From Alphaproteobacteria bacterium (GTDB lineage: Bacteria > Pseudomonadota > Alphaproteobacteria > UBA2966), in the NCBI GenBank assembly GCA_964291395.2, contig OZ219856.1:160001-224000 (forward strand): 64,000 bases of DNA. Reading direction: 5' to 3'. Below the pieces are notes generated by a model that was given only the letters and a program-made list of their open reading frames with translations, ran no database searches and had not been told where the DNA came from. This document shows positions 13,326 through 47,326 of the stretch, piece by piece (the first letter of the stretch is position 1; every line of letters begins with the position of its first letter). A program made the translations under genes and the position numbers.

Positions 13326-14693
13326 ATGAACGTATTGCAGAAGACAGAGCCGCGGCCGTACTCGGGGTATTATCTGCGCGATGTCCCCGAACCCGACGCC
13401 GAACTGACCCGGACAGGCCCGGGAACGCCCATGGGCGAGCTCATGCGCCGGTTCTGGCAGCCGGTGTGCCTCTCGTCGGAGATCGCCGATCTTCCCCACG
13501 CCGCTCGCATCCTGGGTGAGGACTTGGTGGTCTTCCGCGACCAGCGGGGCGAAGTCGGCGTCCTTCTCCGTCATTGCAGCCATCGGGGTACCTCGCTGGA
13601 GTATGGCATCGTTTCCGAACGCGGCATCCGCTGCTGCTATCACGGCTGGCTCTTCGATATCGACGGGACCGTTCTTGAAACGCCGGGAGAGCCCCCCGAC
13701 AGCGCGATGAAGGATACGCTGCGCCACGGCGCATATCCGGCCCGCGAGTACAAGGGACTGGTGTTCGCCTACATGGGGCCGCCTGACGAGCAACCCGAAT
13801 TCCCGATCCTGGATACTTACGGCAAGCCCGACAATGAAATGGTCCCCTATTCGGTTTGGCACCCCTGCAACTGGCTGCAGGTAAAGGAGAATTTCGTCGA
13901 CCCGGCGCATGCCTACTTCTTGCACAGCACCATCACGACCGTGCAGTTCAGCGATGCCTGGGCCGAAATGCCGACGTTCGACTGGGATGAGACCCCCGAC
14001 CGGCAGGGAATGTACTACATCACCGCGCGCCGGGTGGATGAGCGGGTCTGGATCAGGTCCAATCACATTTGGCTACCGAATGTCGGGCAAGTGGGCGCCC
14101 TGTTGGAAAAAGCGGAGCAGGAGAAATTCTTCAATCGTGTCAGCATCACGCGTTGGACCGTGCCGATCGACGACACGCACGCCTGGATCATCGGCTGGCG
14201 CCACTTCAACAAGGATGTCGATCCGTTTGATGAAGGCCGGCGGGACGAGTGCGGCGCCGGCTCCGTGGATTTCGAAGGCCAGACCGGCAACCGCTCCTAC
14301 GAAGAGAAGCAACGGGTTCCCGGCGATTGGGACGCCCAGGTCAGCCAACGGGAGATCGCCGTCCATGCCTTGGAGCATCTCGGTTACACGGACGGGGGAG
14401 TCGCCATGTGGCGGCGGATCCTGAGACGAGCGGCGCGGGGAGAGATGGACGTCACGGCTCAGCGACCGCGCGCGGGCGGCGACCCGCTGCACACCTACAC
14501 TCACGATACCGTGCTCGAAATCGCCGAGACGCCGGAGGAGGACAGCCATCGCCTGAAGGCCATCGGCCGCGATGTGCTGGGCGCCATTCTGTCCGGCGAC
14601 GCCTACGACGGAGATCCGAGGCAGATCCACATCGAGAAGGCCCTCAACGAGGTGAAGGCCAAGTATGGAGGCTCTGCACGAACTCCCGCGTGA
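13326..14693 (+). CDS. Rieske non-heme iron oxygenase alpha subunit (phthalate dioxygenase/LigX-like group)
   Basis: TGPGTPMGELMRRFWQP; Rieske motifs CSHRG and CCYHGW; mononuclear Fe motif ENFVDPAHAYFLH. Confidence 0.9.
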   Translation: MNVLQKTEPRPYSGYYLRDVPEPDAELTRTGPGTPMGELMRRFWQPVCLSSEIADLPHAARILGEDLVVFRDQRGEVGVLLRHCSHRGTSLEYGIVSERGIRCCYHGWLFDIDGTVLETPGEPPDSAMKDTLRHGAYPAREYKGLVFAYMGPPDEQPEFPILDTYGKPDNEMVPYSVWHPCNWLQVKENFVDPAHAYFLHSTITTVQFSDAWAEMPTFDWDETPDRQGMYYITARRVDERVWIRSNHIWLPNVGQVGALLEKAEQEKFFNRVSITRWTVPIDDTHAWIIGWRHFNKDVDPFDEGRRDECGAGSVDFEGQTGNRSYEEKQRVPGDWDAQVSQREIAVHALEHLGYTDGGVAMWRRILRRAARGEMDVTAQRPRAGGDPLHTYTHDTVLEIAETPEEDSHRLKAIGRDVLGAILSGDAYDGDPRQIHIEKALNEVKAKYGGSARTPA

Positions 14694-39211: not shown

Positions 39212-39391
39212 ATGGAGCTGCTCTATTTCACGGTCGTGGCGGTCGCGCTCTACTTCGTCTCCGACTGGATCGTCGATCGCATCGAGCATGCGGCGGGCCG
39301 TCGTTTCGAACACCGTACGCTGCTCTTCTTCGCCGTCATCCTCGCTCTCGGGACTGTCGCCTTCTGGCTGATCCGAACGCTATCGAGTTGA
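39212..39391 (+). CDS. Small two-TM membrane protein (59 aa, absent from the ORF track)
   Basis: MELLYFTVVAVALYFVSDWIVDRIEHAAGRRFEHRTLLFFAVILALGTVAFWLIRTLSS*. Confidence 0.75.
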   Translation: MELLYFTVVAVALYFVSDWIVDRIEHAAGRRFEHRTLLFFAVILALGTVAFWLIRTLSS

Positions 39392-39401
39392 TCTAAATCA
39401 A
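39388..39401. promoter_or_regulatory. FNR/FixK/DNR-type box upstream of the oxidase operon
   Basis: TTGATCTAAATCAA is a perfect TTGAT-N4-ATCAA; -10-like TAGGGT at 39424-39429 fits class II spacing. Confidence 0.85.
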
Positions 39402-39494
39402 TCAGGGCTTTCCACCGGCTTGCTAGGGTGCCCCGGTCGGGCGCCTCTCCCCGACTCGAGCGTGTCGCGGCGAGGCCGAGAGAGGGGACGAATC

Positions 39495-39671
39495 ATGACG
39501 GATACCGGTCAAGACACGAGAGCGTCGGATCAGCCGGCCGAGCGCGTGCCCTTCATGCAGCGCCTGCTGGACAATCCGTTCCTGCTGCTCTTCCTCGGGG
39601 TCGCCGTGCCGGCGGTCCTCTATCTCATGTGGGGGATCATGGAGGTCGCCCAGATCCCCATCGCGCCGTAG
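39495..39671 (+). CDS. Small single-TM subunit (subunit IIa-like) of the heme-copper complex
   Basis: 58 aa; PFMQRLLDNPFLLLFLG...WGIMEV; directly precedes subunit II. Confidence 0.75.
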   Translation: MTDTGQDTRASDQPAERVPFMQRLLDNPFLLLFLGVAVPAVLYLMWGIMEVAQIPIAP

Positions 39672-39686
39672 GCCGGAGGGACCGAC

Positions 39687-40232
39687 ATGGCCATACATCC
39701 GCCCGAAAAACGCATTTGGTGGAACGAGCCCCTCGAAAGATCAGAAGTCACGTGGATCACCATCGCTTTCATCTGGGGCCTGGTGATGTTCTTCACCATG
39801 GTGTTCTGGCACTTCACCGGCGAACAGAACCTCTCCAACGAGGCCTACCGTATCCACCCCGAGACCTTCGCCGAGCGCACCGAGGCGATGGCCGACCAAT
39901 ATACGGTCCGCGAAGAGGGCGACACCGGTATCCCGGTGGTCCATCCGCCGCCGGGAAGCGACGTTTACATGTTGGCGCGCCTTTGGGAATGGTGGCCGAT
40001 CCTCGAACTGGAGGAGGGTAAGGACTATCGCCTGCACCTCTCCTCGATGGATTGGCAGCACGGTTTCTCGCTGCAGCCCGAAAACATCAACATCCAGGTC
40101 CATCCGGGCTACGAGCTCGTGTTGACGCTCACGCCCGAGGGCGTCGGGGAATACGGGGTCGTTTGCAACGAATTCTGCGGGATCGGCCACCACCAGATGG
40201 TGGGAAAGATCTACGTGGTGGAAGCGAAATAG
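39687..40232 (+). CDS. Heme-copper oxidoreductase subunit II (CuA, single TM)
   Basis: DWQHGF and CNEFCGIGHHQM CuA motifs. Confidence 0.93.
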   Translation: MAIHPPEKRIWWNEPLERSEVTWITIAFIWGLVMFFTMVFWHFTGEQNLSNEAYRIHPETFAERTEAMADQYTVREEGDTGIPVVHPPPGSDVYMLARLWEWWPILELEEGKDYRLHLSSMDWQHGFSLQPENINIQVHPGYELVLTLTPEGVGEYGVVCNEFCGIGHHQMVGKIYVVEAK

Positions 40233-40242
40233 GGGGCGCGTC

Positions 40243-41967
40243 ATGGCGAGCATCGCAGATACCGGTACCCTGCCGAGGGCCGCCGAGTTTCGAACGTGTC
40301 CCGACACCGGCCTCAAGATCGACCTCGCGGCCGAGAAGCTAATCCGCTGGAACGCGGTCGTTGCCGTGGTGTTCCTCGCCATCGGCGGTTTTTTCGGCCT
40401 GCTGGTGGCGCTGACCCGCTGGCCAGCGGTCCATCTGTTGCCGGCGGAGTGGTTCTACCTGGCGCTGACGGCGCACGGCGCCGACGTGCTGCTGTTCTGG
40501 GTCATCTTTTTCGAGATCGCCATCCTCTACTTCGCTTCGGCGGTTCTGCTCAACAGTCGCCTCGCGACCCCGCGGATCGCTTGGCTCGGGTTCTGGCTCA
40601 TGCTGGCCGGCGCCCTTCTCGCCAACGTGGCGGTGCTACAAGGCGAGTCGAGCGTCATGTTCACGTCCTATGTGCCCATGCAGGCGGCGCCCCACTTCTA
40701 TCTAGGCCTGATCCTCTTCGCCGTCGGGGCTTTGGTTGCCGTCGCCGTGTTCTTCGGCACGCTGGTCATCGCGAAGGATGAGGGCACCTACGAGGGATCG
40801 GTGCCATTGGTCACATTCGGTGCCATCGCCGCGGCGGTTATCGCGGTCTTCACCATCACCTCGGGTGCCATCATTCTCATTCCCACCTTCTTCTGGTCGA
40901 TCGGCATCATCAGTCACATCGATCCGGTGATGTACAAGGTCGTGTGGTGGGGCATGGGCCACTCCTCGCAGCAGATCAACGTCTCGGCCCACGTCGCGGT
41001 GTGGTATGCCATCGCCGCCATGGTGCTGGGCGCCAAGCCGCTATCGGAGAAGGTGAGCCGTTTCGCCTTCCTCATGTACATCCTGTTCCTGCAGATCGCC
41101 GCGGCGCACCACCTTCTGGTGGAACCGGGTATCAGTTCGGAATGGAAGATCTTCAATACGAGCTACGCGCTCTACCTTGCCGTGCTCGGCAGCCTCATCC
41201 ACGGCCTCAGCGTCCCCGGTGCCATCGAGGCGGCCCAGCGCCGCCGTGGCTTCACCAAGGGCGTGTTCGAATGGTTGCGCAAGGCGCCGTGGGGTAATCC
41301 GGCCTTCTCCGGGATGTTCCTGTCGCTCGTCATGTTCGGTTTCCTCGGCGGCATCTCCGGCGTGGTGCTCGGCTCGGAGCAGATCAACCTGATCCTGCAC
41401 AACACCATGTACGTGCCTGGTCATTTCCACGGCACCGTCGTTGCCGGAACGACGCTCGCCTTCATGGCCATCACCTATCTCGTGGTGCCGCTGATTTTCC
41501 GCCGCGAGATCATGTTCAAGAAAGTCGCCCAGTGGCAGCCGTACGTCTTCGGTCTCGGCGTCGCAGGCATATCGCTGTTCATGATGGGGGCGGGTACGCT
41601 CGGCGTCAGTCGGCGCCACTGGGACATCACCTTCTCCGATGCCCCCGTGACCTTCGACTATCCCGGCACGGCTTTCCTGATGATGGGGCTGAACGGCGTG
41701 TTCGGCGTCCTCGCGGCTTTGGGTGGCCTGATGTATGTCGTGGTCGTGGTCTGGTCCGTCTTCTTCGGGGAACGACGAACCGAGGAGAAAGCGCGGGCCG
41801 AGCCGTTGCTGCCCCAGGACGGCGCGGCGGCGGTTGCGACCTACGGCAGCGAGGGCACCCTCAAGCTGCCGGGCACGATCACGCTTGTCGCGGTCTTCTT
41901 CGTGGCTTTTGTCCTCTACTACTTCGTCAACTGGAAGTTCCTGTCGGAAGTCTGGCCCTTGAGTTGA
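40243..41967 (+). CDS. Heme-copper oxidoreductase subunit I, probable eNOR-type nitric oxide reductase
   Basis: Six His ligands present (TAHG, GHSSQQ, AHHL, GHFHG); Gln at the position of the cross-linked Tyr. Confidence 0.8.
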   Translation: MASIADTGTLPRAAEFRTCPDTGLKIDLAAEKLIRWNAVVAVVFLAIGGFFGLLVALTRWPAVHLLPAEWFYLALTAHGADVLLFWVIFFEIAILYFASAVLLNSRLATPRIAWLGFWLMLAGALLANVAVLQGESSVMFTSYVPMQAAPHFYLGLILFAVGALVAVAVFFGTLVIAKDEGTYEGSVPLVTFGAIAAAVIAVFTITSGAIILIPTFFWSIGIISHIDPVMYKVVWWGMGHSSQQINVSAHVAVWYAIAAMVLGAKPLSEKVSRFAFLMYILFLQIAAAHHLLVEPGISSEWKIFNTSYALYLAVLGSLIHGLSVPGAIEAAQRRRGFTKGVFEWLRKAPWGNPAFSGMFLSLVMFGFLGGISGVVLGSEQINLILHNTMYVPGHFHGTVVAGTTLAFMAITYLVVPLIFRREIMFKKVAQWQPYVFGLGVAGISLFMMGAGTLGVSRRHWDITFSDAPVTFDYPGTAFLMMGLNGVFGVLAALGGLMYVVVVVWSVFFGERRTEEKARAEPLLPQDGAAAVATYGSEGTLKLPGTITLVAVFFVAFVLYYFVNWKFLSEVWPLS

Positions 41968-41982: not shown

Positions 41983-42849
41983 ATGGTAGCGGTTGTCAGG
42001 GAGCTTTACGGTGTCTTCAAGCTGCGTATCGGATTCGCGATCGCGCTGAGCGCGGCGGCAGGTCTCGCGGCGACGCCCGGACCATCCATCCCGTTCTGGA
42101 ACGCTACGGCTCTCGTCCTGGCCGTGTTGCTCGCAGCCGCGAGCGCCGGCGCTTTCAACCAATTCGCCGAGCGCGATCTCGATGCGCGCATGGTCCGCAC
42201 CCGCGGACGGCCCTTCGTCTCGGGCCGGTTTACCGCCGGGCCTTTCTGGCTTGCCATCATCGGTGGACTGCTTGTGTTTTCGGTGATGCTGGCCGCCTGG
42301 GCCACCAACGTAGTGGCCGCCACGCACGTGTTCCTCGGCGCCTTCGTGTACGGCGTCGTCTACACCGTGTGGCTCAAGCGCCGCACCTGGCTCAACATCG
42401 TCGTCGGAGGTCTGTCGGGAAGTTTCGCGGTGCTGGCCGGTGCAGCGGCCGTCGATGCGAATCTCTCCGCCGTGCCGGTCTGCCTCGCAATCGTTCTGTT
42501 CCTCTGGACGCCTCCGCATTTCTGGAGCTTGGCGATGGCGCTGCGCGAGGACTATGCCCGGGCCGAGGTGCCCATGCTGCCGATCGTTGTCGGCGATGTA
42601 CGGGCGGCCAAGGTCATTCTTGCCCATACGGTGGTGCTCGTCGCCTTGTCGTTGATGCCTTTCATCTACGGGCTTGGCCTCGTCTATCTCGCGTTGGCGG
42701 TGATCGGCGGCTGGGTTTTCGTCGAGAAGAGCATCGCCCTCGTACGCACACCCGGACCTGCGGCGGCGCGCGCGAACTTCAAAGCCTCGCTGCTGCAGCT
42801 CTCGTTGATTCTGGTCGGCGCCATGGCGGACGCATGGTTGCCCTTGTAA
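41983..42849 (+). CDS. ctaB: Protoheme IX farnesyltransferase (heme O synthase)
   Basis: ERDLDARMVRTRGRP, YTVWLKRRT, FLWTPPHFWSLA. Confidence 0.93.
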   Translation: MVAVVRELYGVFKLRIGFAIALSAAAGLAATPGPSIPFWNATALVLAVLLAAASAGAFNQFAERDLDARMVRTRGRPFVSGRFTAGPFWLAIIGGLLVFSVMLAAWATNVVAATHVFLGAFVYGVVYTVWLKRRTWLNIVVGGLSGSFAVLAGAAAVDANLSAVPVCLAIVLFLWTPPHFWSLAMALREDYARAEVPMLPIVVGDVRAAKVILAHTVVLVALSLMPFIYGLGLVYLALAVIGGWVFVEKSIALVRTPGPAAARANFKASLLQLSLILVGAMADAWLPL

Positions 42850-43661
42850 GTCGCTGCGCTTCGCGGGTCTTGACTGCGTTGTGCCTGTTCGCAGCCGTCC
42901 CGGGGCTGGCGGCACCGACAGCTCCCACCGCCTTCGATCCTGATCGGGCGCTCGCGGATAGCCAAGCGGCTCTGGGACGCACGCTCTCGGGCTACGAATT
43001 TCGTGACGCTTCGTTCCGACCGCTGACGCTTTCGGAGTTTCGCGGCCGACCGTTGCTGATCAACCTCGTCTATACGAGTTGTGCTTACGACTGTCCGCTT
43101 ATCATCGAGACGTTGGCCGAAGCCATCGATATCGCGCGCGAAGCAGTGGGCCCAGAGAGTTTCCAAGTGCTGACCGTTGGATTCGACACGCGCATGGATA
43201 CGCCGGAACGGATGCGCGAATTTGCCGCCAACCATGGCATTCGCGACGACGGCTGGCGTTTCGCCAGTGCCGAGCACGAGACCATTGCACGACTCTCGAA
43301 GGATGTGGGCTTCTTGTTCTTCCCTTCGGCAAAGGGCTTCGACCATATCGCTCAGACTACGCTCGTCGACGCCGACGGCGTCATCTACCGCCAGGTCTAC
43401 GGCGCTGGGTTCGATCCGCCCTTTCTGGTGGAGCCGCTGAAGGATCTGGTTTTCGGGCGCGAGAGCGTGCCGACGTCGCTCGAGGGGCTGATCAACCGCA
43501 TCCGCTTCTTTTGCACCATCTACGACCCGTCGAGCGGCCGCTACCGGTTCGACTACTCCCCCTTCATTGCCATCGCTGTCGGTATCGCCTCCCTCGGCGG
43601 GTTGGGCTTCGTCGTCGTGCGCGGTTGGCTCCGTCAGCGTCGCCCTCACGCGCGGTCCTGA
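42834..43661 (+). CDS. SCO1/SenC copper chaperone with C-terminal TM
   Basis: YTSCAYDCP (CxxxC), DTPE, FDH. Confidence 0.88.
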   Translation: MVALVSRCASRVLTALCLFAAVPGLAAPTAPTAFDPDRALADSQAALGRTLSGYEFRDASFRPLTLSEFRGRPLLINLVYTSCAYDCPLIIETLAEAIDIAREAVGPESFQVLTVGFDTRMDTPERMREFAANHGIRDDGWRFASAEHETIARLSKDVGFLFFPSAKGFDHIAQTTLVDADGVIYRQVYGAGFDPPFLVEPLKDLVFGRESVPTSLEGLINRIRFFCTIYDPSSGRYRFDYSPFIAIAVGIASLGGLGFVVVRGWLRQRRPHARS

Positions 43662-43679: not shown

Positions 43680-45269
43680 GTGACGGCGCTGCAGCATATC
43701 CTGCGGCCGGCCCTCTGGCGCTTCGACGATCTGTTGTCGCGTATTTTTGGGCCGGCCTGGAACCCCCTCTACAACCTCGGAGCGCTGGGTTTTTTCTTTT
43801 ACTGGATCGTCGCGATCAGCGGCATATACATCTACATCTTCTTCGATACCGGCGTTACCGAGGCTTACGACTCCGTCGCCTACATGACGGAGGACCAGTG
43901 GTACCTTGCCGGCGTGATGCGGAGCCTGCACCGCTACGCCTCGGACGCCCTGGTCGTCGTCATGGTGCTGCATCTGATCCGCGAGTTCACCTATGACCGC
44001 TACCGAGGCGCGCGTTGGTTCAGCTGGCTTACTGCCGTCCCGATAATTTTGTTCGTCCTCGCGGCCGGCATCACGGGCTACTGGCTGGTCTGGGACCAGC
44101 TTGCGCAGTACGTCGCCATTGCCACCACGGAATGGCTCGACTGGCTGCCCATCTTCGGTGAGCCCATCGCCCGCAACTTTCTGGCGCCCGACGCGCTCGA
44201 TGACCGTTTCTTCACTTTGCTCGTGTTCCTGCACATCGCCGTGCCGTTGCTGTTGCTGCTGGCATTGTGGATCCACCTGCAACGGGTGAGTCGGCCACGC
44301 GTCAACCCGCCGCGCGGTCTGGCCGCGGGTAGCTTCGCGGCGCTTCTCGCGCTCTCGTTCGCCATGCCGGCGACCAGTCACGCCCCCGCCGATCTGGCGA
44401 AGGTACCCACGGTCCTCGACCTCGACTGGTTCTACCTCGGGTTCCACCCGTTGATGGACGTGTGGTCCCGCGGCACGGCGTGGGCCACGGCCGCCGTGCT
44501 GACGCTGACGATTGCCGTCATGCCCTGGTTGCCTCCCTTTCGCCGCCCCGCGGCGGCGCGGGTCGATCTCGACAACTGCAACGGGTGTGCCCGCTGCGCC
44601 GAGGACTGCCCCTTCAACGCGATCTCGATGGAGCGCCGCAGTGACGGCAAACCGTTCGACCGGGAAGCGGTCGTCAAGAGCTCGCTGTGCGTGAGTTGCG
44701 GAATTTGCGCGGGGGCCTGTCCGACAGCGACTCCCTTCCGCCGCACCGGCGCCCTGGTCCCGGGGATCGAGCTGCCCCACGCCACGCTGGTGAGCCTGCG
44801 GGACGCACTCGATCGAAAGGCGGATACCGGTGGCCAACAGGTCTACCTCATCGCCTGCGAGCATGGGGCCAGGCGGGAGACGATCGGCCACCCGGACCTT
44901 GCCGTCGCCACGGTACCTTGCATCGGCGCCCTACCACCGTCGTTCATCGACTACCTGTTGAGCCGTTGCGGCGCGGCAGGCGTCTACCTGGCCGGATGCC
45001 CGCAGGGCAATTGCCACTTCCGCCTCGGCAACGCATGGACCGAGGCACGCCTCGAGGGACGGCGCGACCCGATCCTGCGCAAACGGGTTCCACGCGAACG
45101 GGTGTGCTGGGGCTGGTTCGCGCCCCATCAGTCGTCGGGGCTGTGGCGGTCCGTCGAGACGTTCCTCCGCGATGTTCGCGGTTTGCCTCCTCAGGAGGCT
45201 CCGTCCGTCCGACAGCTCAGCACCCGCTTCGACCGGTCGCGGGAAGAGGGAGGCGTTGGCGGTCCATGA
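43680..45269 (+). CDS. Cytochrome b + 2x[4Fe-4S] ferredoxin + MvhD/FlpD-like [2Fe-2S] fusion protein
   Basis: His pairs RSLH...VLH and FLH...WIH; GITGYWLVWDQ; CNGCARCAEDCP and CVSCGICAGACP; IACEHG...PCIG...GCPQGNCHFRLGN. Confidence 0.85.
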   Translation: MTALQHILRPALWRFDDLLSRIFGPAWNPLYNLGALGFFFYWIVAISGIYIYIFFDTGVTEAYDSVAYMTEDQWYLAGVMRSLHRYASDALVVVMVLHLIREFTYDRYRGARWFSWLTAVPIILFVLAAGITGYWLVWDQLAQYVAIATTEWLDWLPIFGEPIARNFLAPDALDDRFFTLLVFLHIAVPLLLLLALWIHLQRVSRPRVNPPRGLAAGSFAALLALSFAMPATSHAPADLAKVPTVLDLDWFYLGFHPLMDVWSRGTAWATAAVLTLTIAVMPWLPPFRRPAAARVDLDNCNGCARCAEDCPFNAISMERRSDGKPFDREAVVKSSLCVSCGICAGACPTATPFRRTGALVPGIELPHATLVSLRDALDRKADTGGQQVYLIACEHGARRETIGHPDLAVATVPCIGALPPSFIDYLLSRCGAAGVYLAGCPQGNCHFRLGNAWTEARLEGRRDPILRKRVPRERVCWGWFAPHQSSGLWRSVETFLRDVRGLPPQEAPSVRQLSTRFDRSREEGGVGGP

Positions 45270-45766
45270 CCAGTGCTTTCCGATATGTGGGCCAGGCCGC
45301 CGTGCTCGTCGCCTTTGCCGGGGTGGTCGGGTTCTTTTCCGGCGCTCCTTCTTTTCGCCATTTTCCCGAGGGGCAGGCCCTACTCAAGGTGAGCTTCGCG
45401 CATGGTGGCGCCCGTAGGGCGGAATGCCGGAAACGGACGCGGCGGGAGCTTGCGGAGATGGCGGCGAACATGCGGAAGGAGATGGATTGTCCTCGTGGAC
45501 GGGTAGACCTGAGGCTCGAGATCGACCTCGATGGAGCACCGCTCTACCAGGCGACGCTGCCGCCGACGGGGCTTGCGGGGGACGGCCCATCGCGCGTCTA
45601 CGAACGGTTTATGCTCCCCGCGGGTCGCCACGTTCTCCATCTTCGCTTGCGCGATTCCCGTCGGAATCAGGGGTTCGATCACGTCACGCGGAAGGTCGTG
45701 GAGCTCGCTGCCGGACAAAGTGTCGCCGTCGATTTCCACGTCGGCGAGGGATTCATCGTCCGATGA
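45266..45766 (+). CDS. Uncharacterised membrane-anchored protein with two Cys
   Basis: N-terminal TM; ECRKR...MDCPRGR; ATGA overlap with the upstream gene. Confidence 0.8.
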   Translation: MTSAFRYVGQAAVLVAFAGVVGFFSGAPSFRHFPEGQALLKVSFAHGGARRAECRKRTRRELAEMAANMRKEMDCPRGRVDLRLEIDLDGAPLYQATLPPTGLAGDGPSRVYERFMLPAGRHVLHLRLRDSRRNQGFDHVTRKVVELAAGQSVAVDFHVGEGFIVR

Positions 45767-45803: not shown

Positions 45804-46211
45804 ATGGCGCTGATCCCGTGGCGAGAGGCGTTCGAGATCGGGATCGAGTCGGTCGATCACGAGCACCGCGAGTTGATAGACCTTATCAACCAACTCCATG
45901 ACCGGCTCGATCATAGTGCCGCGCCGGAGATCGTCGCCGGTTTTCTCGGTGAGATCTATGCGCGCATCTCCGCGCATTTCGCCCTCGAGGAAAGAGTCAT
46001 GCGCGAGCTCGAGTACGACGACTACGCGGATCACAAGGATGACCATGAAGCCCTGCTGGACGATATCAGGGACATCATGGATGTCTTCGACGAGGGCGGC
46101 TATGTGGACTTGCAGGAGGATTTGGGAGACCAACTCGAAACGTGGTTCGGTGGACATTTCCGCACGAAAGACGCCCGCCTTCACACCTTCCTCGAAGACA
46201 GGGGCGCTTGA
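45804..46211 (+). CDS. Bacteriohemerythrin (single domain)
   Basis: WREAFEIGIESVDHEH, HFALEE, HKDDH, WFGGHFRTKD; GGAGG RBS. Confidence 0.92.
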   Translation: MALIPWREAFEIGIESVDHEHRELIDLINQLHDRLDHSAAPEIVAGFLGEIYARISAHFALEERVMRELEYDDYADHKDDHEALLDDIRDIMDVFDEGGYVDLQEDLGDQLETWFGGHFRTKDARLHTFLEDRGA

Positions 46212-46221
46212 TCGAAATCAA
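46208..46221. promoter_or_regulatory. Second FNR-type box at the 3' end of the operon
   Basis: TTGATCGAAATCAA, perfect consensus, overlapping the hemerythrin stop codon. Confidence 0.7.
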
Positions 46222-46402: not shown

Positions 46403-47326
46403 ATGACGGACAAGGTTGCCATCGTTGTCGCACCGACCGGGGCGCTCAACACGCGCGAATCGGCGCCTTACATGGCCTATACCGTTGAGGAGCAGGCTGT
46501 AGAAGCGAGGAACTGTGAAGACGCCGGCGCGTCCATCTATCACGTCCACGTCAGGGACGAGCGGGGCGCGAATTCGGGTGATCCCGAGATCTACGGCCGA
46601 CTGGTCGAGCACGTGAGAACGAAGTCCGATTTGCTCATTCAAATCGGCGGGGCGCTCGGACCCGTCCGCGACCCCGACACCGGCATCATCGGCTATCCCT
46701 TCACCGAGGAAGACCGGCTGCACGCTCTCGAGACGAAGCCGGCGCCGGACATGTTCACGGTGAAAATCGGCGCGGTCGAGCTTCGGGTTCCGGCCAAGAA
46801 CTATGAAACCATCGGCCTGCGGAACTCGCCCAAATTCCTGCGCCAGGCGATTCCCTACGTCATGGAACGGGATATGTGCCTGGAGCTGGAAATCTTCGAT
46901 GTCGGCTGTCTGTACAACGCCAAGATCCTGGAGGAAGAGGGGCTTTTCGGACCTGCGGGACTGAGCTCTCCCGGGTGCTACCTGCACTTCGTGATGGGCC
47001 ATGGCGGCCAGCCGGCGACGATGAAGCAGCTGATGTATCTCCATGAAGAGTCGCTGAAACTGTTTCCCGATGCGGAAATCTGCGTAAGCGCCGCGGCGGA
47101 CGAATGCTATCGCATCATCACGACCGCGATGCTTCTGGGCTGCAACATGGTGCGGTGCGGCATAGAAGACAGCCGGCACCTGTCGAACGGCCGGCGCGCC
47201 GAAAGCAACGTTCAAATCGTCGAAAACGTCGTGAGGATCGCGCGGGAGATCGGACGGGACGTGGCCTCGGTCAGCGAAGCGCACGAGATGCTGATGCCGA
47301 GGACGTCGGCCCAGCGCGCCGCCTGA
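46403..47326 (+). CDS. Beta-keto acid cleavage enzyme (BKACE/DUF849) family
   Basis: VAPTGA, AGASIYHVHVRD, ELEIFDVG, VRCGIEDS, ESNVQIV. Confidence 0.9.
   Translation: MTDKVAIVVAPTGALNTRESAPYMAYTVEEQAVEARNCEDAGASIYHVHVRDERGANSGDPEIYGRLVEHVRTKSDLLIQIGGALGPVRDPDTGIIGYPFTEEDRLHALETKPAPDMFTVKIGAVELRVPAKNYETIGLRNSPKFLRQAIPYVMERDMCLELEIFDVGCLYNAKILEEEGLFGPAGLSSPGCYLHFVMGHGGQPATMKQLMYLHEESLKLFPDAEICVSAAADECYRIITTAMLLGCNMVRCGIEDSRHLSNGRRAESNVQIVENVVRIAREIGRDVASVSEAHEMLMPRTSAQRAA

Follow-up and report, generated by a model that had tools for sequence, protein, structure and literature searches.

A cytochrome b-ferredoxin-MvhD fusion that accompanies eNOR-type nitric oxide reductase genes and may serve as a Rieske-less transmembrane electron module

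A stretch of 64,000 nucleotides (nt) from an Alphaproteobacteria bacterium (assembly GCA_964291395.2, contig OZ219856.1, positions 160,001 to 224,000; hereafter the window) was analysed around a gene at positions 43680..45269, which encodes a single chain made of a cytochrome b, two [4Fe-4S] motifs of the ferredoxin type and an MvhD-type domain. The family of this fusion is large, conserved and widespread. With the 166-residue product of the next gene (p166) the fusion forms one genetic unit, and the pair is an accessory of gene sets for eNOR, a nitric oxide (NO) reductase of the haem-copper superfamily. On balance, we lean towards the reading that the fusion serves eNOR as a dedicated transmembrane electron module without a Rieske protein. 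The fusion and its parts, together with p166, are located in the window as follows.

43680..45269, + strand: cytochrome b / 2x[4Fe-4S] / MvhD fusion, 529 amino acids, the main gene of this study
43758..44282, + strand: cytochrome b6-like four-helix di-haem core, residues 27-201 (PF00033; H84, H98, H185, H199)
44313..44528, + strand: helix E, ef loop and helix F, subunit IV-like by profile match to b6f subunit IV
44421-44432, + strand: Qo-type motif L248-D249-W250-F251, aligned to PEWY
44556..44729, + strand: 2x[4Fe-4S] ferredoxin domain, residues 293-350 (Fer4 families)
44841..45203, + strand: MvhD/FlpD-type domain, residues 388-508, presumed [2Fe-2S] (PF02662; C393, C414, C440, C445)
45266..45766, + strand: p166, 166 amino acids, N-terminal transmembrane helix and beta-sandwich, of no known family; start overlapping the fusion stop (ATGA)

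The open reading frame (ORF) of the fusion has a GTG start codon, 18 nt behind the SCO stop, and is intact, with no internal stop. The three-domain architecture proposed in the initial annotation was borne out, as all of the domains scored over their Pfam cut-offs and the haem histidines and cluster cysteines were conserved. Cytochrome_B (PF00033) was matched at residues 27-201 (E 9.7e-22; 78.2 bits against a cut-off of 27.2), Fer4 (PF00037) twice within residues 294-350 (E 9.4e-11; Fer4_7, 38.5 bits against 27), and FlpD/MvhD (PF02662) at residues 404-502 (E 6.4e-13; 49.2 bits against a cut-off of 22.3). The NCBIfam matches (ExtP b-type cytochrome, cytochrome b6, and the C-terminal end of HdrA2) were all sub-threshold, and the fusion therefore belongs to no named equivalog.

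In an alignment of 67 family members, the haem ligand pairs H84/H98 and H185/H199, each spaced 14 residues apart, were invariant (67/67). This spacing agrees with the 13-14 residues between the paired histidines on helices B and D that bind haems bL and bH in the cytochrome b/b6 superfamily. The family profile matched cytochrome b6 (6rqf_I) with an E-value of 1.3e-39, and it extended over residues 19-288 of yeast cytochrome b. A profile of helix E, the ef loop and helix F (A7) matched subunit IV of b6f with an E-value of 4.9e-5, and placed L248-D249-W250-F251 opposite PEWY. This comparison needed the family profile, because in a single-sequence search of the PDB with the ef loop the match to subunit IV was not significant (E 0.13) and ranked under antibody chains. 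A DWFY string had been read in place of PEWY; it is present at residues 249-252, but the equivalent of PEWY lies one register earlier. The aspartate of this motif was invariant (D249, 67/67), W250 was kept in 54/67 and F251 in 52/67 members. The first position is leucine, not proline, in 52/67, and LDWF is carried by the window and by 52/67 relatives.

Both of the CxxCxxCxxxCP motifs that had been noticed in the initial annotation were found, at residues 300-311 (C300/303/306/310-P311) and 337-348 (C337/340/343/347-P348). Seven of their eight cysteines were invariant in 67/67 members, and C303 was kept in at least 90%. The MvhD part holds six cysteines, of which C393, C414 and C440 were invariant (67/67), C445 was present in 63/67, and C430 and C476 were not conserved. 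The MvhD/FlpD-like pattern of cysteines was likewise upheld, with C414, C440 and C445 aligning with the cysteines of solved MvhD chains. Two family profiles matched one such chain (9sw2_D) with E-values of 2.2e-16 and 2.6e-12. Judged by these cysteines, the MvhD-type domain presumably binds a [2Fe-2S] cluster.

An AlphaFold model of the fusion, built with the 67-sequence alignment, reached a predicted local distance difference test score (pLDDT) of 91.4 and a predicted template modelling score of 0.89. It contains six membrane helices (residues 29-54, 74-104, 110-137, 175-201, 212-228 and 264-283), and Foldseek aligned it with full-length bc1 cytochrome b over 285-300 columns with an E-value of about 1e-7. 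In cytochromes b6 and b, the N-terminus is on the cytoplasmic (n) side of the membrane. As the number of helices is even, the iron-sulfur (Fe-S) and MvhD part would be on the side of the N-terminus, i.e., cytoplasmic. As modelled, the fusion is a cytochrome b6 with the first two helices of subunit IV, extended by a cytoplasmic three-cluster arm.

The model of p166 (pLDDT 96.2) showed a transmembrane helix at residues 2-26 followed by a beta-sandwich, and the residues P28, H46, C54, C75, R77, R79, G102, Y112 and D130 are invariant. Among 150 representative relatives of the fusion, 109 bear MvhD; 67 of these matched the p166 profile with their C-terminal ~150 residues, and p166 was joined to a bare cytochrome b core in two further representatives. 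The remaining 39 had neither MvhD nor p166, and many of these are fragments. A single-sequence search with p166 gave 58 matches, compared with the 67 + 2 found with the profile. Because p166 is fused after the cytoplasmic MvhD domain in 67/150 representatives, its sandwich must face the periplasm, where it would occupy the position of the Rieske head in bc complexes. The ATGA overlap, the fused forms, and the retention of the pair where it is unlinked from eNOR (see below) establish the fusion and p166 as one genetic unit. The fold of p166 was compared against several resources: Foldseek gave no match in the PDB at E <= 1e-3, VIA-align returned generic beta-sandwiches only (best Z 8.8, the luminal domain of HGSNAT), a Pfam scan across 60 members found nothing meaningful, and the ESM Atlas held 'hypothetical protein' clusters only. 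No cofactor-binding fold or motif was recognised in p166 by any of these four.

The fusion and p166 follow a set of genes that includes a haem-copper enzyme, and the cluster had been taken to encode an oxygen-reducing oxidase. The cluster genes on the + strand, other than the fusion and p166, and the regulatory site in front of them are listed below.

39388..39401, + strand: FNR/CRP-type box (TTGAT-N4-ATCAA), at 299 nt in front of the start of subunit II
39495..39671, + strand: 58-residue single-helix membrane protein, between the FNR box and subunit II, no Pfam match
39687..40232, + strand: eNOR subunit II, one transmembrane helix and a CuA cupredoxin domain (CoxB and NosZ CuA-region matches under the NCBIfam cut-offs)
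40243..41967, + strand: eNOR subunit I, haem-copper superfamily, no Tyr cofactor (PF00115, E 2.5e-66)
41983..42849, + strand: haem O synthase CtaB/CyoE (TIGR01473, 248.6 bits against a cut-off of 210.3)
42834..43661, + strand: copper chaperone SCO1/SenC, CxxxC motif, hydrophobic helix at the C-terminus (PF02630, E 6.6e-12)
45804..46211, + strand: bacteriohemerythrin, last gene of the cluster (NF033749, 102.3 bits against a cut-off of 84)

Subunit I of the window has H240, Q244, Y255, A256, S317 and H320. In the published residue listing, the corresponding residues of the Rhodothermus marinus (R. marinus) eNOR are Q245, Y256, S318 and H321, and those of sNOR are N243, T319, Y254 and E255 (Dataset S1, Murali et al. 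2024, PMC11214002); the window subunit has a constant offset of -1 from the R. marinus eNOR. The glutamine at the position of the Tyr cofactor, together with the eNOR K-channel residues, identifies the enzyme by its sequence as an eNOR-type NO reductase rather than an oxygen reductase, and the earlier assignment as an oxidase was thus replaced. The sNOR type (norSY-senC-orf1 type of ammonia oxidisers) was ruled out by Q244, which is not Asn, and A256, which is not Glu. In subunit II, the CuA ligands H125, C160, C164, H168 and M171, as well as E20, were invariant in 47/47 aligned sequences. E20 was equated with the channel glutamate E-II-21 of R. marinus by position only. As the initial annotation had stated, neither a Rieske nor a cytochrome c domain was found in the seven cluster proteins, and none was found in the 22 flanking ORFs (27-58.5 kb). 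In our reading, the fusion is not part of a bc1 or b6f complex. The cluster has no HdrA flavin domain, HdrBC or hydrogenase genes. Genes for heterodisulfide reductase, hydrogenase or formate dehydrogenase were absent from the cluster and its flanks, the Hdr/Mvh search being confined to this region rather than genome-wide.

The extent of the family was assessed by two protein searches. A word-indexed search with the fusion gave 5681 of 8000 scored candidates at E <= 1e-3. All 120 of the matches listed were 518-557 residues long with the same three Pfam domains, and any names they carried were either 'cytochrome b N-terminal domain-containing protein' or 'hydrogenase iron-sulfur subunit'. When the cluster representatives were searched exhaustively, the matching proteins numbered 4212 at E <= 1e-3, 1400 at E <= 1e-10 and 530 at E <= 1e-30.

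The genomic surroundings were analysed in a scan of one genome per species, in which at least 603 stretches matched and 552 encoded relatives; the best 80 were kept, and all of these are from Alpha-, Beta- or Gammaproteobacteria. Subunit I lay upstream on the same strand in 61/61 of the kept loci with at least 4.5 kb of upstream sequence; nine of the other 19 hold a partial subunit I, and ten were too short to judge. The eNOR residues Q/Y/S were present in 69 of the 70 subunit I ORFs near the fusion, with one gapped, and H320 in 70/70. A second scan was seeded with a more distant subfamily, and 80 metagenome loci were taken. An eNOR-type subunit I was held by 34 of them, with Q in 31/31 where the position was covered, and 43 were too short to be judged. 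The p166 gene was present in 77/80 genome loci and 69/80 metagenome loci, and was never absent where the flanks allowed judgement. The initial annotation was to be refuted if hidden Markov models failed to support the MvhD or cytochrome b domains, or if homologues were mostly linked to unrelated loci. Neither was the case: the cytochrome b and MvhD domains were both supported, and homologues lay overwhelmingly at the same kind of locus.

As the locus sample may favour the standard arrangement, co-occurrence was counted separately in 400 other genomes, sampled evenly across the phylum, with thresholds of E <= 1e-20 for the fusion and E <= 1e-60 for subunit I. The fusion was found in 52 and an eNOR-type subunit I in 49 (all with at least 584 bits); 48 genomes had both, four the fusion only, one eNOR only, and 347 neither. 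The fusion and eNOR matches fall in 20 and 21 of 212 genera, respectively. In four genomes (G010, G050, G086 and G110) the fusion and eNOR are unlinked, and in these the block of small protein-II-I-(ctaB)-sco is intact and the fusion stays with p166. Adjacency to SCO is not obligatory, since the fusion and p166 lie 13 kb to 927 kb from this set. Further draft genomes, with the two gene sets on different contigs, were uninformative for linkage.

Some of the 400 genomes contained more than one match to the fusion. Two matches each were present in 16 genomes of one family (f38; G381:C85:1985-5101 and 15 more), with three in one of them; these genomes are 1.2-2.3 Mb in size, and the copies are in tandem in G381, G105 and G285. 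The second match is probably a flavoprotein-type paralogue. One or two in-frame TGA codons were seen in six fusion matches (G018:C80, G225:C4, G209:C102, G130:C148, G330:C64 and G294:C2).

A Pfam census of 24 unusual representatives showed that the constant core is the cytochrome b with p166, and that the cytoplasmic module is exchangeable. One representative (P0159) has flavodoxin, FAD and NAD domains behind the cytochrome b, and another (P0160) has Fer2, FAD_6 and NAD_1, a type that also occurs at L072:5614-7557, in a locus of Ca. Ferrigenium bremense. In P0258 a divergent COX1-like domain is fused to the cytochrome b, and in P0240 an SCO domain is found in front of cytochrome b-Fer4. In known enzymes, flavodoxin/Fer2, FAD and NAD modules take electrons from NAD(P)H. 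The replacement of the arm by NAD(P)H-flavoprotein modules fits a transmembrane wire that is fed from the cytoplasm and/or by quinol. The Ca. Ferrigenium bremense locus (L072) holds, in order, II, I, ctaB, sco, cytochrome b-Fer2-FAD-NAD, p166, a COX1-like gene (L072:8081-9499, under the Pfam cut-off) and cytochrome b-Fer4-MvhD. Divergent COX1-like paralogues lie beside the fusion in L072, L131, L146, L181 and L208, and none in the window; they keep the haem histidines and H240 and are without the HH metal ligands.

The architecture is already in print. A 'PDWF-FeS clade' of cytochrome b was described by Kao and Hunte in 2014 (PMC4122944), and the same paper mentions an Alicycliphilus protein fused to ferredoxin/flavin oxidoreductase domains. 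As far as its description goes, this clade shares with the fusion the order of cytochrome b, 4Fe-4S and MvhD-type domains and a cluster without a Rieske protein. It may differ in its Qo motif, which by the name of the clade would be PDWF and is LDWF in the window and in 52/67 relatives. In the parts of that paper available to us, the clade is given neither a link to eNOR nor a function. The placement beside eNOR has also been reported, for one genus, in a 2026 preprint on Ferrigenium straubiae (bioRxiv 10.64898/2026.01.22.701106), which places a cytochrome b-[Fe-S] and a cytochrome b-[Fe-S]-FAD-NADH protein in the eNOR operon. An oxidoreductase acting from quinol to NAD+ and coupled to eNOR is put forward there, and the proteins are reported from a proteome. 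The operon and the window have in common eNOR II and I, the genes of haem O synthase and sco1, one product of unknown function and cytochrome b-Fe-S genes. The window differs in having the MvhD-type copy only, no flavoprotein paralogue, no COX1-like gene and an additional hemerythrin. The layout of the F. straubiae type was verified in the Ca. Ferrigenium bremense locus. The cytochrome b genes are called 'rather unusual' in the preprint; the fusion accompanies eNOR in 48/49 of the eNOR genomes sampled here. Literature searches found no published functional test of the fusion family.

With the cytochrome b6 and subunit IV of b6f, and with the cytochrome b of bc1, the fusion shares a four-helix di-haem core with the same four histidines and a PEWY-type Qo motif in the ef loop (LDWF, with its invariant aspartate). 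Unlike these, it has six helices only, its motif reads LDWF, it is encoded with neither a Rieske protein nor a cytochrome c1/f, and its C-terminus runs into cytoplasmic Fe-S domains. It scored 87.5 bits with the NCBIfam b6 model, against a cut-off of 325, and was under the cut-off of every named cytochrome b equivalog. Residues 290-506 resemble the C-terminal ferredoxin and MvhD part of HdrA2 (positions 569-775 of 777, E 7.4e-20), and the solved MvhD chains of Mvh-Hdr complexes were matched (E 2.6e-12) with their cysteines aligned. In contrast to HdrA2 and Mvh-Hdr, the fusion has its ferredoxin-MvhD module anchored to a cytochrome b in the membrane. A functional parallel is found in the Sulfolobus quinol oxidase SoxABCD, in which a homologue of cytochrome b, SoxC, supplies a haem-copper enzyme with no Rieske protein involved. 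The fusion matched the SoxC model with an E-value of 1.2e-8, but with 34.4 bits against a cut-off of 740, and SoxC is without Fe-S domains. In nitrate reductase, the di-haem b subunit NarI is coupled to the cytoplasmic Fe-S clusters of NarH; the likeness to the fusion is in layout only, as the fold of NarI is unrelated.

In the reading that we favour, the module would receive electrons from a cytoplasmic donor, by way of the [2Fe-2S] and the two [4Fe-4S] clusters, and/or from quinol, at the p-side pocket that is conserved. The electrons would then cross the membrane over the two b haems (bH and bL) and reach the CuA of eNOR subunit II on the periplasmic side, with the beta-sandwich subunit p166 placed where a Rieske head would sit. 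The initial annotation had described a single-chain transmembrane wire. Of this, the single chain, a cytochrome b without Rieske and c1 partners and the cytoplasmic position of the Fe-S side, given by the six-helix topology, held, and the arm swaps fit. A complex prediction of fusion residues 1-292 and p166 with eNOR subunit II scored 0.02, which is evidence neither way.

Several observations weigh against a module dedicated to eNOR. Contact and electron transfer between the fusion and eNOR, like the direction of the flow, are predictions from sequence. The biochemistry of eNOR is known only from the R. marinus enzyme, and this enzyme reduces NO in isolation with ascorbate and N,N,N',N'-tetramethyl-p-phenylenediamine (TMPD) (PMC11214002); catalysis in vitro thus does not require the module. 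Elsewhere in the genome (C3:974091-976355) lies a canonical Rieske-cytochrome b-c1 operon. It contains the sole PF02167 (cytochrome c1) match in the genome (C3:974091-974744), and the Rieske match that adjoins a cytochrome b (C3:976176-976355) belongs to this separate operon, which could feed CuA through soluble carriers. Two representatives (P0176 and P0247) consist of cytochrome b and p166 only, and as they have no cytoplasmic module, a cytoplasmic donor cannot be the general electron source.

The genomic association also has its exceptions. Three of the 37 judgeable metagenome loci (L131, L145 and L152) have at least 6 kb upstream and no eNOR subunit I. The four genomes with the fusion only (G150, G166, G174 and G345) are 77-96% complete, G174 being in 730 contigs, and the one with eNOR only (G090) is in 360 contigs. 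All of these exceptions (4 + 1 genomes and three metagenome loci) are draft or short records. The count covers one phylum, in which related genomes are not independent. Where the two sets are unlinked on one contig, the distance is 927 kb in G010, 13 kb in G050, 15 kb in G110 and 20 kb in G086, and the neighbours of the fusion and p166 in G010 (a radical SAM enzyme, a methyltransferase, a hexapeptide transferase and an aminotransferase) give no clue to a partner.

The fusion could instead be a bifurcating Rieske-less quinol oxidase, in which quinol would be oxidised at the Qo-type pocket. One of its electrons would go to the very high-potential eNOR branch on the periplasmic side, and the other, of low potential, would run via bL and bH to the Fe-S chain and on to a cytoplasmic acceptor such as ferredoxin, an MvhD-docking partner or, in the flavoprotein variants, NAD+; electron flow uphill would in this way be driven by NO reduction. 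We consider this unlikely, although the invariant aspartate of the Qo motif (67/67) and the alignment of the ef loop to subunit IV speak for it. MvhD and the HdrA-type ferredoxin domain are parts of bifurcating enzymes, and this origin is a further point in its favour, as are the Fer2-FAD-NAD paralogues in the same operons of Gallionella/Ferrigenium-type loci and the quinol:NAD+ oxidoreductase proposed with eNOR in the F. straubiae preprint (10.64898/2026.01.22.701106). A first acceptor of high potential comparable to the Rieske cluster was not identified, however, p166 having a generic beta-sandwich fold without a cofactor motif, and the MvhD form is without a flavin site. The organism, judging from the flanking genes, also looks heterotrophic, with no evident need for reverse electron flow. 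A wider version of the same idea, in which the fusion, p166 and eNOR would form a Rieske-less 'complex III-IV-like' supercomplex with NO-driven quinone-based electron bifurcation, appears quite improbable to us. There, the very high potential of NO reduction would pull one quinol electron outward, and the second would be pushed via the b haems into the Fe-S clusters to reduce ferredoxin-level or NAD(P)+ acceptors.

The position of the fusion, commonly directly after sco and here 18 nt past its stop, and the neighbouring assembly genes for haem O synthase and SCO would suit a maturation factor, the second option of the initial annotation, that supplies reducing equivalents across the membrane to keep SCO thiols or copper reduced, or for loading CuA, the non-haem metal or haem into eNOR. 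An SCO-cytochrome b-Fer4 fusion (P0240) speaks for a link to SCO, but it is a single metagenome representative, in which two neighbouring genes may have been called as one. A role in maturation is, in our judgement, distinctly unlikely, as the fusion and p166 are apart from sco in four genomes (on one contig) in which sco stays with eNOR, and a chain of two haems and three clusters is elaborate for a chaperone reductant. The known reductants of SCO and CuA are thioredoxin-like TlpA proteins. It is highly improbable that the fusion is an independent NarI/NarH-like quinol dehydrogenase, which would take up quinol electrons on the periplasmic side and pass both to a cytoplasmic acceptor, e.g., the co-encoded bacteriohemerythrin or another protein that handles NO or O2, and be merely co-regulated with eNOR. 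The di-haem b and cytoplasmic Fe-S layout does resemble NarI and NarH, hemerythrin follows p166 in 48/80 loci, and the fusion and p166 can be unlinked from eNOR. Against this, hemerythrin is missing in 32/80 loci, the Gallionella type included, 48/52 fusion genomes have eNOR and 48/49 eNOR genomes have the fusion, and the periplasmic domain of p166 would be left without a role.

The fusion and p166 are the sixth and seventh genes of an operon with an FNR-type box in front. Sites of the form TTGA-N6-TCAA occur twice in the window, compared with 0.32 expected, and an FNR-type box was found 243-575 nt upstream of subunit II in 30/56 related loci, against a background of 0.035 per 500 nt. The second site of the window lies at the end of the operon and could either regulate the BKACE-family gene behind it or mark the operon end.

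46208..46221, + strand: second FNR-type box, a perfect palindrome, which overlaps the hemerythrin stop and lies 182 nt upstream of the BKACE-family gene
46403-47326: BKACE-family gene, downstream of the second FNR-type box

Homologues of the 58-residue protein were present in 59 of the 61 loci in which the sequence in front of subunit II extends for at least 300 nt (E <= 1e-3). This protein is possibly a small subunit of eNOR, akin to subunit IIa of the ba3 oxidases. The start of the SCO gene is ambiguous (ATG 42834 or GTG 42867), and its product has an extra C-terminal ~60 residues, with a cysteine and the hydrophobic helix, past the SCO1/SenC domain. The bacteriohemerythrin was matched with at least 100 bits in 48/80 related loci and in none of the Gallionella-type loci. 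Its conceivable roles beside an NO reductase include O2 or NO binding, iron supply and cluster repair.

The genome (98.1% complete, with 9% contamination) has a NirK (485.8 bits), and its only two PF00115 genes are those of an A-family oxidase and of eNOR. No cd1 NirS, cNOR/qNOR, NosZ, NarG or NapA scored over the family cut-offs in the genome. With NirK and eNOR as the sole denitrification enzymes found, the organism would convert nitrite to N2O and then stop. Over the Pfam cut-off, 69 Rieske-domain matches were counted in the genome, mostly in frames of 340-550 amino acids and one of them in the window (13455-13697), which suggests a very large set of Rieske-type oxygenases.

Near-identical DNA occurs in other data sets: thirteen sequencing runs, not counting the best-matching one, which is a possible source, contain at least half of the sampled words of the stretch, and 11 of these, from seven studies, are labelled as sponge metagenome. 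Contigs from RNA libraries of sponge metatranscriptomes matched the operon at 39456-39803 (0 differences), 42951-43535 (1), 44069-44363 (0) and 45108-45396 (3), the last of which spans the fusion/p166 junction. These near-identical contigs are a weak hint that the operon is expressed, as DNA carry-over is possible and the contigs are no proof of one transcript. The parts of the operon left uncovered, e.g., 44448-44681, are uninformative on expression.

In environmental data, eNOR is among the commonest NO reductases, with 2,709 metagenome hits (Table 1, PMC11214002). The portion of that paper available to us names no natural electron donor, and its assays were performed with ascorbate/TMPD. 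Whether these organisms conserve energy when they form N2O depends on the wiring of eNOR to the respiratory chain. A two-gene module with two haems and three Fe-S clusters, present in 48/49 of the sampled eNOR genomes, is an obvious candidate for the missing link, and if the supercomplex reading were true, it would represent a new, NO-driven form of quinone-based electron bifurcation.

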